Shown piece by piece: positions 13,396 through 17,369 of a stretch of 64,000 nucleotides of DNA; the first letter of the stretch is position 1; each line of letters begins with the position of its first letter. This DNA is from a bacterium (GTDB lineage Bacteria; Bacillota_I; Bacilli_A; RF39; UBA660). The stretch lies in contig CAVIUA010000003.1 in NCBI GenBank assembly GCA_963645945.1, positions 149-64,148 on the forward strand, given 5' to 3'. The notes below the pieces were generated by a model. It did not search any database. It was not told the origin of the DNA and was given only the letters and a program-made list of their open reading frames with translations. The position numbers and the translations under genes are program-made.

Positions 13396-16300
13396 TTATT
13401 TTGTAGATGAAATACTTTCTGTATTTTGAGTCTTAGTATTTAACATTTCATTTATTTCTTGATTATTATCTATTTTTGTCTCAGTTGTATTACTTTTTTC
13501 TTGTGTATAATCAATAACAGACTCATTTTGATTATTTATTTTTGGATTATTTTTGACATCTACTATATCTTTTGATTCTTTTATTCCAACTAAAGGTTTA
13601 TTATAACTAGCTTTTTCTCTAATGGTTGATATATAATCATCTATTTCTGGAAGTGATTGTAATTTACCATCAACATAATCCAAGTATTTACTTAGAGTTT
13701 TTTGCATTTTTTCATATCCAGTTGAATTCATATTATCAAAAACAAAATCATTATATGGATAACTATTTCTTATTTCAGAAACATGATTTTTACCATAGTC
13801 ATGAACATGATATATTTTTATAAATTCATCAAATGTCTTTCCTTCTGCTGCTTCCATAAAACTTCTGGCTGCTGTTTCTAGTGTTCCACCGTTTTGAACT
13901 ATCCAATTTTCTATACCTACACCAGCAAGCCCACCTTGTTCAACAGATTTTCTTCTTGGTTTATAACATCCTGCCTTTTTCATTAACATTTTAGCTAAAA
14001 CAATATTTGCAACTACTTCTTCCTTCATTGCTGGATCGATTTTTTCAATTGTGTCAATTCTATCTTTGGCGGCCATTTCTGTTGAATAATCACTTTTATT
14101 TGTTTTTTGAATATAGGTTATATCTAAATCTATTTTTCCTACACCTTTTACTTTGGCTTCTATATCTCTAAAATTAGAACATGGTACTTCTAATATGTCT
14201 AATTCATCACATATGGCTTGATTAATTTTTGATAATTCCCCTTCTTTTTTCAATTTACTAGCATCAATACGAACTATATAATCAAAATCATATTCGTATG
14301 GGATATTAGTTCCTCTAGCAGATGAACCTGTTTCCAATATTTCAACTGTTCCTTCTGTAATATTTATATCCATTTTATTTTTTACGGTTAAGTTTTCATT
14401 AGGAATCATTTCAATGGATTCTTTTAAAGTACTATATACTTTATAAGACTTTCTCTTTATGTCTTCCCTTTCACTTGCAATAAGTTCTTTTAACTGTTCA
14501 ATATAATCATTATTTGAATGTTTTCCAAGCTTATATTCTTTTGAACCATAATATGATAACCCTTGCATTTTACCTTTTATTTCTTCATATTCTTTTGGAG
14601 TAAATATTAATTTGCCCGAAAAGTCAACTACAGGTATATAAAATCCATTCTTTACAATTTCATTTTTTAAGATAGCTAAATCATTATTTGGAGTTTTTTG
14701 TGTATAATTAACAGATCCATCTTCTAAATAAGGCTCAAAAGGATTAATTTCATCGTTTTCTTTAAATAAAATATAATCAATGTCACTACCGGCAATACCA
14801 GTTCTTGCAGCCCAGTGATTGTCATATCCACCTTGGGAAGTTTTACTTCCAAACATTTCTATTTTATCTGGTTTGTATTCACTTTCTATTAAATTTCCTT
14901 GAGAATCTCTAGTTATATTAATTTCTGGATTTTCTTTTTTCAAAATTAAATATATATTTCCAAAACCAAATCCTGTTGGAGTGCCAACAATATTATTATA
15001 TATATTTTTGCCATTTTCTTCTATTAATGTAAAATCAATATCTAATGGAGTCGTATCAGAATTGCTTGCTCCAATGATAGGTCCTAAAAATTCCTTACAA
15101 ACATTTCCATTATTAAGTGAACTTCCAAAACTTTCTATTGTACCAATGGATCTTATAAAGTCTCCTTTTTCTAAAGTTAATACTTTTCCTTCTTCCAATT
15201 CTTTTGCCCTTTTTAATGAGATTTTCTCCTTATTTTTCACCGTATTTATTGTATCATTTTTTAATTGCTTAAAACTGTCATAGCCAGCTTGATAAGCAAA
15301 ATTTCTTACTATTCTATCTGGCAAACTATATTTTTCAGTAGGTTTAAATATTTCATTAAAATACTTTATTTTTTCAACTGGTGATAAGTTTTCTGGAACT
15401 TTTCCATTCTTTTCATAATTTTTTGTTTTTTCATATAAAGCATTTAAATGTGCTGAAAAAACATTAAGAATTTCTTTGGAATTTTCATCTAATTCTTCAT
15501 ATTTTATAATGTCTTTTGTAATGCCTAAAAACAAAGTATTTCCTTTATCAATATTATCCATATATTCTAGTAATGAACGGTTATTTGATCTTACAGCAAT
15601 TCGTAATAAATCATTATAGATAATTTGAAATCTTATATCTGTAGAATTAGGATTCCTATTTACTATTTCCATTCTTCTTGTTTGTATTGGATTAATTAAC
15701 TCTGGTGAAACTCTACTTTCTTCTGAAAAATTAAAATATACATTTTCATTTGATAAGTCCGGATATAATTCTTTAAAGCATTGATATATTTTTGCCATCA
15801 TAGGTAAATTATTCATTAAAAATATTTTTTCAACTTTATCAAATGATTCATTTGGATTTTCAGTTTTTAGAATCAATGGTAAAAATTTATCTAGTAAATT
15901 CCCCAATTCGTTTGAATTTGTATAAACAAAACGCTCTACTATATCAGCAAGTACTTTAATTTCATCAAGAGAAATTTCAGGGTTTTCAACTAAAATTCTC
16001 ATAACATGAAAATTAGCAACGAATGAGTGCGTTTTTTTTAGCGATTTTAATATTTCACTTCTTTTTAATTTAGCTAATTCTTTATCATCATCATTATCAA
16101 ACATTTTCCATGTTTCAAAAATATTTTCTGGTAACACATTTGACTCAATCATATTTACAATCATTGCGGATTGTAAATGAGGATTTTCTACTGTTTCAAA
16201 TTTTCTTATTATCGTTTCATTTGATAAATATTGAAGCACTGAACATTGAAATCCAAAAGCTTTTTCTGGTAATTTTAATATATTTTCAAATTTCAAGTCA

Positions 16301-16734
16301 TCTGATGATAATCTTTTTATTACTTCTAAAACTAAATAGGGATTTGCTTCATCATTTTTAGCCATTTCCTTATCAATTATTTTGACATACATTTTATCAT
16401 CTTCATCATCTTTTGAGAATAATGGTCTATAGGAAATAAAATTAGCCATTTCATAACCTTCTAATCTTTCATATAATATATCAACGTATTTTTCCTGTGC
16501 TTCATGGCTTAAAAATGATTCATAAAGAGTTTCATATTCAAAAATTTCTAGTCCATTTGGTATATTTTGTAGTTTTAATTCATCGTTTGAAAGATTACTA
16601 AACGGGACAATATTATCATTATTATATTTGGCAAAAAAATCCAATATATAGCTATCTGTTTCTTCGCTTTTTGGAAGTGAATAAATAAAATATCTTAAAA
16701 AAGTGCTGTCCTCTTTTGAAAACATTTCGTCCAT
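13396..16734 (-). CDS. giant protein, C-terminal Pol-beta-type nucleotidyltransferase module (downstream part of a ~1320-aa frameshifted gene)
   Basis: 1112 aa from the first ATG, but the frame stays open upstream to ~16990. GSSARGTNIPYEYDFDYIVRID (GS-x9-12-DxD) followed by LAKMLMKKAGCYKP..GGLAGVGIENWIV resembles class I CCA-adding/OAS-like NTases. Confidence 0.6.
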   Translation of the reverse strand: MDEMFSKEDSTFLRYFIYSLPKSEETDSYILDFFAKYNNDNIVPFSNLSNDELKLQNIPNGLEIFEYETLYESFLSHEAQEKYVDILYERLEGYEMANFISYRPLFSKDDEDDKMYVKIIDKEMAKNDEANPYLVLEVIKRLSSDDLKFENILKLPEKAFGFQCSVLQYLSNETIIRKFETVENPHLQSAMIVNMIESNVLPENIFETWKMFDNDDDKELAKLKRSEILKSLKKTHSFVANFHVMRILVENPEISLDEIKVLADIVERFVYTNSNELGNLLDKFLPLILKTENPNESFDKVEKIFLMNNLPMMAKIYQCFKELYPDLSNENVYFNFSEESRVSPELINPIQTRRMEIVNRNPNSTDIRFQIIYNDLLRIAVRSNNRSLLEYMDNIDKGNTLFLGITKDIIKYEELDENSKEILNVFSAHLNALYEKTKNYEKNGKVPENLSPVEKIKYFNEIFKPTEKYSLPDRIVRNFAYQAGYDSFKQLKNDTINTVKNKEKISLKRAKELEEGKVLTLEKGDFIRSIGTIESFGSSLNNGNVCKEFLGPIIGASNSDTTPLDIDFTLIEENGKNIYNNIVGTPTGFGFGNIYLILKKENPEINITRDSQGNLIESEYKPDKIEMFGSKTSQGGYDNHWAARTGIAGSDIDYILFKENDEINPFEPYLEDGSVNYTQKTPNNDLAILKNEIVKNGFYIPVVDFSGKLIFTPKEYEEIKGKMQGLSYYGSKEYKLGKHSNNDYIEQLKELIASEREDIKRKSYKVYSTLKESIEMIPNENLTVKNKMDINITEGTVEILETGSSARGTNIPYEYDFDYIVRIDASKLKKEGELSKINQAICDELDILEVPCSNFRDIEAKVKGVGKIDLDITYIQKTNKSDYSTEMAAKDRIDTIEKIDPAMKEEVVANIVLAKMLMKKAGCYKPRRKSVEQGGLAGVGIENWIVQNGGTLETAARSFMEAAEGKTFDEFIKIYHVHDYGKNHVSEIRNSYPYNDFVFDNMNSTGYEKMQKTLSKYLDYVDGKLQSLPEIDDYISTIREKASYNKPLVGIKESKDIVDVKNNPKINNQNESVIDYTQEKSNTTETKIDNNQEINEMLNTKTQNTESISSTK

Positions 16735-16937
16735 TAGAAAATCTTTCTTTGATTTATTTTCTATACTAAAAAATAAATCCGGTAAAGATAAAGGTGATGA
16801 TGCATTCCCATTATAAAATTTGTCAAAAATTTTTATTTTTGTTTCATCAGTTGATATACTATTTAGTACTACTTTGGCATCAATACTATTTAATAGTTCA
16901 AAATATTTTACTTTTAAATCGTCTGAAGAAAGTTTTT

Positions 16938-17369
16938 TTACGATAGGAGAACTATAAAAAGTTGAATATGGACTTTTTTTAAATCTCCAAGAGTTTTGTC
17001 TCGATATTCATCCATTTCCGAATTCATTTCAGGTATATTCGTTGCTTGGCAAATCTCAACTTTACTATCTAATGATAACTTTTCAAATGCTTTCTTTCTG
17101 ATATCTTCTGTTTTAATACTTTTAAATGCTTTTTCAACATCCAATGAACTCACTTTATCTATATAACGCAACTTAATCTCATCGGTAGATAACTTTTCGA
17201 CAATAGGACCTATTTTATATATATATTCTTTGTTTTTATCATTTAATATTTCTTCTAGAAGTTTTTCTCTATACTTATCATATTTAGGATTTTTTGGCAT
17301 TTTCTCTTCGCGTATTAGCTTAGAAAAAATTCTATTCTCTAAATATTCTTTTTTTAACCGTTCAAGCAT
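16938..17369 (-). CDS. N-terminal part of the same giant gene (separated by a frame change at an A7 run)
   Basis: The 143-aa ORF has a frame that meets the upstream-open frame of 13396-16734 at GAT TTA AAA AAA GTC (T7 at 16974-16980 on the plus strand). Confidence 0.55.
   Translation of the reverse strand: MLERLKKEYLENRIFSKLIREEKMPKNPKYDKYREKLLEEILNDKNKEYIYKIGPIVEKLSTDEIKLRYIDKVSSLDVEKAFKSIKTEDIRKKAFEKLSLDSKVEICQATNIPEMNSEMDEYRDKTLGDLKKVHIQLFIVLLS

Follow-up and report, generated by a model that had tools for sequence, protein, structure and literature searches.

In a 64,000-nucleotide stretch of the draft genome of an uncultured gut bacterium of the GTDB lineage Bacilli_A; RF39; UBA660 (assembly GCA_963645945.1, contig CAVIUA010000003.1, positions 149 to 64,148; the whole stretch is hereafter termed the window), two overlapping open reading frames (ORFs) of 143 and 1112 amino acids (aa) on the minus strand form a single gene for a protein of about 1324 aa. 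The gene is split by a one-base deficit in a homopolymer, and this break is very probably not programmed but stems from an error of assembly or from a mutation that is recent or polymorphic. Our main explanation of the product is a cytoplasmic multidomain protein composed of helical repeats, a beta-rich and possibly ADP-ribosyltransferase (ART)-like domain, and a Pol-beta-type nucleotidyltransferase. The frame break itself is ordinary, and the gene is of more interest than the lesion. The protein family, undescribed so far and of moderate interest, spans hundreds of species of uncultured gut Bacilli and has no Pfam, NCBIfam, or PDB relative. Identification of its substrates would establish a new enzyme architecture within a little-known portion of the gut microbiota.

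Two reading frames of one gene

The features of the split gene around the junction, in window coordinates, are the following:
16938 to 17369, minus strand: upstream ORF, 143 aa, from the ORF listing and direct reading
13396 to 16734, minus strand: downstream ORF, 1112 aa, in a frame different from that of the 143-aa ORF
16974 to 17369, minus strand: upstream part of the gene, codons 1 to 132 ending in ...GDLKK, with helical repeat 1 and the beginning of repeat 2
16938 to 17007, minus strand: stretch open in both frames (ORF overlap)
16974 to 16980, minus strand: run of seven A (A7; T7 on the plus strand) in the A_AAA_AAA phase of the upstream frame; the frame changes by -1 here

An earlier reading made from the letters alone (hereafter the sequence-only reading) had proposed that the two ORFs overlap in different frames, that the frames meet at the T7 of 16974-16980, and that a slip would fuse them into about 1324 aa. 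The ORF listing and our direct reading agree with the overlap and with the meeting point, which on the minus strand reads GGA GAT TTA AAA AAA GTC where the downstream frame is shifted by -1 from the upstream one. In the zero frame, TTA AAA AAA places the run in a slippery heptamer of the X_XXY_YYZ type. Past the run, the upstream frame continues for 11 out-of-frame codons (VHIQLFIVLLS) to a stop at 16938, and a -1 slip at A7, or one extra A in the RNA, leads instead to ...GDLKK/SPYSTFYSS... and a recomputed product of 1324 aa. The downstream frame was indeed found to be open 5' of its first ATG (16734), although the extent differs from the 87 codons (to about 16995) given previously: it is open for 91 codons, back to 17007.

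A homology search with the fused read-through as the query returned 131 relatives. The closest, P0002 (1335 aa, 76% identity, 100% coverage), spans the junction, and nothing closer than 76% identity was present in a collection of 5.8 billion proteins. At the junction P0002 reads ...EELKE/SPYSIFYSS..., the residue-for-residue partner of the fused reading, which aligns to this intact ortholog without a gap. The gene is likewise a single uninterrupted ORF in G013 (loci L002 and L007), the most closely related species of the genus; the window protein is 78% identical to the L007 ortholog over its length, and its upstream part shares 70% identity with the N-terminus of that ortholog. Comparison of the junction DNA, TTAAAAGAAAGTCC in the ortholog versus TTAAAA-AAAGTCC in the window, reveals that the window is short by exactly one base. 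Moreover, the ortholog has no homopolymer at this place, with an in-frame AAAAGAAA where the window has AAAA-AAA.

The gene is accessory, being found in 3 of the 19 genomes of the genus. Among 79 related loci, taken from GTDB species representatives, most hold a single long ORF of roughly 1100 to 3800 aa, and none exhibits a two-ORF split at the same position. The sequence-only reading had named two separate conserved genes in orthologs as the finding that would overturn the fusion. The orthologs are single uninterrupted genes, and therefore the 143-aa and 1112-aa ORFs are one gene. It could be argued that they are a small 143-aa protein and an independently started 1112-aa protein, given that the N-terminal length varies greatly in the family and that the shorter protein could be functional, some members being only about 1090 aa long. 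We regard this as extremely improbable, not only because the orthologs hold both parts in one ORF but also because the homologous sequence extends 91 codons 5' of the ATG at 16734 with no ATG, GTG, or TTG start codon among them; this ATG is preceded by AAAGAAAGATTTTCTA, which contains no Shine-Dalgarno (SD)-like motif.

Selection on the gene was estimated as the ratio of nonsynonymous to synonymous divergence (dN/dS) by the Nei-Gojobori method relative to the G013 ortholog. The ratio is 0.14 before the break, 0.09 in the beta-rich domain, 0.12 in the nucleotidyltransferase, and 0.23 for the whole gene, with values of 0.45-0.48 for residues 133-500 (the N-terminal repeats) and 0.17 for residues 500-730. 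The dS of about 0.5 is similar to that of the neighboring nucleosidase gene (0.48). The gene was thus under purifying selection until at least very recently. Since purifying selection clearly acted on the downstream part during almost the entire divergence, the break is recent, artefactual, or compensated. Flanking genes share 92-96% identity with their L007 counterparts, versus 78% for the split gene; the excess divergence sits in the N-terminal repeat region and the disordered tail, and the lower identity of the whole protein is due to the faster evolution of the N-terminal repeat region.

Nature of the frame break

The reading frame would require eight bases where the window carries A7. The missing base could have been lost by a replication-slippage mutation, either very recent or polymorphic in the strain, or it could be a homopolymer miscall in the draft metagenome assembly, and we consider these two origins about equally likely. 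AAA-AAA sites are intrinsically shifty; therefore, if A7 is real, some of the ribosomes or RNA polymerases might slip by -1 on A_AAA_AAA and a certain amount of full-length protein might arise. Such slippage would be adventitious leakiness rather than an evolved recoding signal. The situation resembles homopolymer frameshift pseudogenes and "savior-indel" genes (PMC1088944, PMC5009743), including tssM of Citrobacter (PMC4256274), in which a single-base indel in an A run similarly splits a conserved ORF and, as here, a -1 or +1A event at the run would restore the full product. The documented slippage-rescue cases, however, use 9-11 A, whereas the run in the window is only A7, and rescue is hypothetical here.

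Several observations weigh against a simple, non-programmed deficit. The length of the A7 run is known from the draft assembly alone, and the heptamer is in perfect X_XXY_YYZ phase, so that a share of the slippage could be functional; C-AAA-AAA by itself gave 25-60% -1 frameshifting upon overexpression in Escherichia coli (PMC1851650). Only about 3-4 of the approximately 2077 A/T runs of at least 7 nt in the genome are broken; thus the assembly is not grossly error-prone, and an artefactual origin becomes less convincing. Both MutS and MutL are intact (frames of 856 and 610 aa, respectively), so there is no mutator background that would favor a mutational origin. Exact-product look-ups of both ORFs, directed at other assemblies of the species, provided no match, nor did a search of metagenome contigs for the junction pattern with A7 to A9 or with AAAAGAAA.

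Programmed -1 frameshifting or transcriptional slippage at A_AAA_AAA had been suggested from the sequence. As in dnaX or insertion sequences, the cell would then produce a short 143-aa repeat fragment and the full-length enzyme at a fixed ratio. The slippery heptamer is indeed perfect and in the correct phase, selection persisted 3' of the break, efficient shifting at AAA-AAA sites is possible in E. coli (PMC1851650), and poly-A slippage rescues tssM in Citrobacter (PMC4256274). Nevertheless, the closest ortholog does not possess the run and reads straight through it, and the two-ORF arrangement at this place was found in no other homolog. The 86 nt downstream of the site fold with a minimum free energy of -5.9 kcal/mol (z = 0.10), which is no better than shuffled sequences. 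In dnaX-type sites, the SD element that stimulates the -1 shift is spaced 10-14 nt upstream. Here, the sole SD-like sequence is a GGAG located 4 nt upstream, which derives from the Gly-Asp codons and is absent in the ortholog. No stimulatory element, either a downstream structure or an SD at 10-14 nt upstream, was therefore found at the junction. The proposed resemblance to the dnaX A_AAA_AAG site thus holds for the in-phase X_XXY_YYZ heptamer of lysine codons and for nothing beyond it: unlike dnaX, the window site lacks a hairpin and an SD at the proper spacing and is not conserved, and the dnaX shift leads to the shorter product whereas the shift in the window would lead to the longer one. 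As for transcriptional slippage, it becomes evident, and the runs prone to it are selected against, in bacterial genomes from a run length of about 9 nt (PMC1088944), which A7 does not reach. Given these findings, the programmed alternative is very unlikely.

Phase variation, with A7 as the "off" and A8 as the "on" state of a reversible switch for a costly or conflict-related protein, is also unlikely. It would agree with the accessory status and the fast-evolving N-terminus of the gene, with the breaks of several accessory genes of this genome at A/T runs that are either one base short (as in the large gene) or one base long (as in a Tim44-like gene described below), and with a conflict role as suggested by giant relatives that carry a toxin-type ART domain. 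On the other hand, the run is merely 7-8 nt long and is not conserved in the ortholog, and the intact MutS and MutL count against it. In classical contingency loci, the tracts are longer, are conserved, and lie close to the promoter or the 5' end. In a broader form, which we likewise consider improbable, A7 would be real and either leaky (by -1 slippage) or reversible (A7/A8), and would tune a two-enzyme protein with a conflict or RNA-modification role. Small-genome gut Bacilli may then use this protein, in which the two enzymes (ART-like domain and nucleotidyltransferase) follow a swappable array of repeats, and the other homopolymer-broken accessory genes of the genome may share this contingency strategy. 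Compared with these alternatives, a one-base deficit of mutational or technical origin accounts best for the non-conserved run and the selection on both sides of it, and the break, if real, is probably recent.

The draft genome comprises 48 contigs and 1.32 Mb (27.6% GC, 193 N). A two-frame screen of all its A/T runs of at least 7 nt retrieved 15 candidates, most of which are normal boundaries between genes, having an SD and a start codon in the vicinity. At least two further genes (DUF2229 and Tim44-like) are broken at homopolymers. The DUF2229 (CoA enzyme activase-associated) gene, on the minus strand of contig C8 (reverse-complement coordinates of about 2335-3258), is interrupted at an A7, GGTAAAACAAAAAAATTGCC, with the downstream frame at -1; its halves match the Pfam profile at positions 1-130 and 134-217. 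In a paralog of a Tim44-like/zinc-ribbon protein (window 4093-4130, minus strand), an A8 run near 4120, GGTCAAAAAAAATGTCATGAAAGAT, breaks the frame. For the frame that goes on into ...VMKDF, this run has one base too many, which is opposite in direction to the deficit in the large gene. Loss of mismatch repair as a common cause was rejected on account of the intact MutS and MutL. These breaks fit either occasional miscalls in a draft metagenome-assembled genome (MAG) or ordinary slippage mutations in accessory genes. Such homopolymer-linked breaks of this draft genome will be called as split genes or pseudogenes by annotation pipelines.

Architecture of the protein

Structure predictions were made with the 1112-aa ORF or a piece of it. 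AlphaFold2, using a 38-sequence alignment, produced a model with a mean predicted local distance difference test score (pLDDT) of 84.8 and a predicted template modeling (TM) score (pTM) of 0.81. In this model, residues 1-515 are all helical, 526-730 are beta-rich, 743-775 form a long helix, 783-1045 comprise an alpha/beta head and a helical domain, and 1048-1112 are disordered. The corresponding regions of the gene are as follows:
15190 to 16974, minus strand: all-helical region, LSxD(D/E)hK-type repeats followed by an ARM/HEAT-like body, from the model and weak Foldseek matches
14509 to 15189, minus strand: middle domain, beta-rich and conserved (ORF residues 516-742), possibly ART-like
13594 to 14409, minus strand: predicted Pol-beta-type nucleotidyltransferase head and helical substrate-binding domain, residues 776-1047 of the ORF
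13396 to 13593, minus strand: low-complexity, predicted disordered tail (pLDDT below 50, residues 1048-1112) and stop

Searches of Pfam, NCBIfam, and PDB sequences with the whole protein and with a family profile resulted in no significant match, and our literature search found no paper describing the protein family.

On the basis of its motif and predicted fold, the C-terminal domain is an intact Pol-beta-type nucleotidyltransferase. The catalytic motif GS-x11-DxD, TGSSARGTNIPYEYDFDY, is present at 14281-14328; the sequence-only reading had recognized it but with the spacing GSSARGT-x9-DFDY, which needs to be corrected to GS-x11-DxD (GSSARGTNIPYEYDFDY). G803, S804, D816, D818, and D871 are invariant in 38 homologs, D871 being the third Asp, located on strand 866-876 of the model. 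The GGLAGVGIENW segment pointed out earlier is present as well, and the QGGLGGxGxENW helix region to which it belongs is equally invariant in these homologs. The top ten Foldseek matches in the PDB are all nucleotidyltransferases (TUT7, TbTUT4, LpCdnE, and EmCdnE among them) with probabilities of 0.97-1.0 and E-values of 4.6e-3 to 8e-2; further matches include cGAS, STING-associated CdnE, and NF90, with probabilities of 0.91-1.0 (0.75 for NF90) and E-values up to 0.8. Both the E-values and the TM scores are diluted because the query was the full-length model.

With TUT7, TbTUT4, CdnE, cGAS, and OAS the domain has in common the GS-x11-DxD motif, the third Asp, and a following helical domain (LAKxLLKxAGxYK...QGGLGGxGxENW). 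TUT7/TbTUT4 and the cGAS/DncV-like nucleotidyltransferases (CD-NTases) are the best structural matches, yet their TM(target) is 0.34-0.49 and their identity 10-14%. The earlier assignment to nucleotidyltransferases therefore stands for the fold and the invariant motif but not at the level of profiles. No curated nucleotidyltransferase profile of Pfam or NCBIfam passes its threshold, and the weak matches are to the PADLOC Cyclase profile (E = 1.4e-4) and, in one homolog, to SMODS (18.9 bits versus a cut-off of 26.5). Unlike the enzymes listed above, the domain has no Pfam nucleotidyltransferase, SMODS, or PAP-associated profile above threshold. It also differs from them in its place at the end of a protein that exceeds 1300 aa, and no effector gene like those of cyclic-oligonucleotide-based antiphage signaling systems (CBASS) lies close to it.

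The middle domain is possibly ART-like, which we offer as a lead. When modeled alone it gives a pLDDT of 80, and its alignment contains 20 invariant columns. Foldseek against the PDB gives weak matches, every one of them an ART fold; Tpt1 comes first (E = 0.066, probability 0.92, TM(target) 0.65), followed by DarT, enterotoxin A subunits, and PARP1. Searches for sequence matches in Pfam and the PDB, including with a profile of the domain, were negative. In a viral library, the domain matched mostly uncharacterized phage proteins, some of them polyvalent-protein-associated. In the PDB, its sole structural matches are ART folds, with the NAD-binding lobe of Tpt1 in the lead; the domain unlike Tpt1/KptA and DarT has no profile match and only weak fold matches (E of 0.066 or more). 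Neither an H-Y-E nor an R-S-E motif could be assigned from its alignment. In two giant relatives of 3825 aa (L023:34-11508) and 2990 aa (L019:95-9064), a PF03496 ADP-ribosyltransferase exoenzyme domain (E about 1e-14) lies well C-terminal of the nucleotidyltransferase core. The family therefore recruits toxin-type ART modules, and to judge from this domain content the giant members hint at a conflict or effector role.

The fused protein contains at least four LSxD(D/E)hK motifs, at residues 60, 147, 260, and 354, in repeats of about 90 aa; the frame break, at codon 132, falls just before the second of them. This N-terminal repeat array is hard to assemble, as seen in P0007 (locus L004). Recurrent N-terminal truncation, for which the 1084-aa homolog P0007 was a candidate, was rejected given a gap of N within the repeats of the scaffold (L004:3850-3960). 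At the other end of the protein, 8 of 38 homologs possess a hydrophobic C-terminal tail anchor (P0010, P0012, P0013, P0026, P0031, P0034, P0037, and P0038), whereas the window copy and its closest relatives have the low-complexity disordered tail and no anchor. No hydrophobic N-terminal segment suggestive of a signal peptide was found in any of the 38 homologs checked.

Gene neighborhood and interruptions in other homologs

Upstream of the split gene lies one further feature of interest:
17461 to 18465, minus strand: DUF3137 membrane protein, 334 aa, upstream neighbor (Pfam PF11335, E = 5.4e-31)

The Pfam match agrees with the previous description of this gene as DUF3137-like. Its homologs were absent from all 79 related loci in tblastn searches, the closest relative included, so that it is not a conserved partner; a functional partnership with the large gene was rejected on this basis. 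In the closest relative, a Hint-tailed fibre gene directly precedes the large gene, and about 235 bp (L007:1480-1716) separate these two genes where the window has the DUF3137 gene, which is accordingly a lineage-specific insertion or deletion. No recurring neighbor family, CBASS Cap effectors included, was identified in the 79 loci, the largest cluster of flanking genes comprising 5 loci and being of housekeeping nature.

Two homologs in other loci are themselves interrupted. One from another MAG (L066:380-411) changes frame at TTAAAAAATTTT, a short homopolymer just 5' of the conserved SNSxEL block. The other contains a single in-frame TGA (GCC AAT TGA ATA; L028:5626-5628), which looks like a nonsense mutation rather than the use of genetic code 4, because the adjoining gene for an 873-aa PEP-utilising enzyme is free of in-frame TGA codons.

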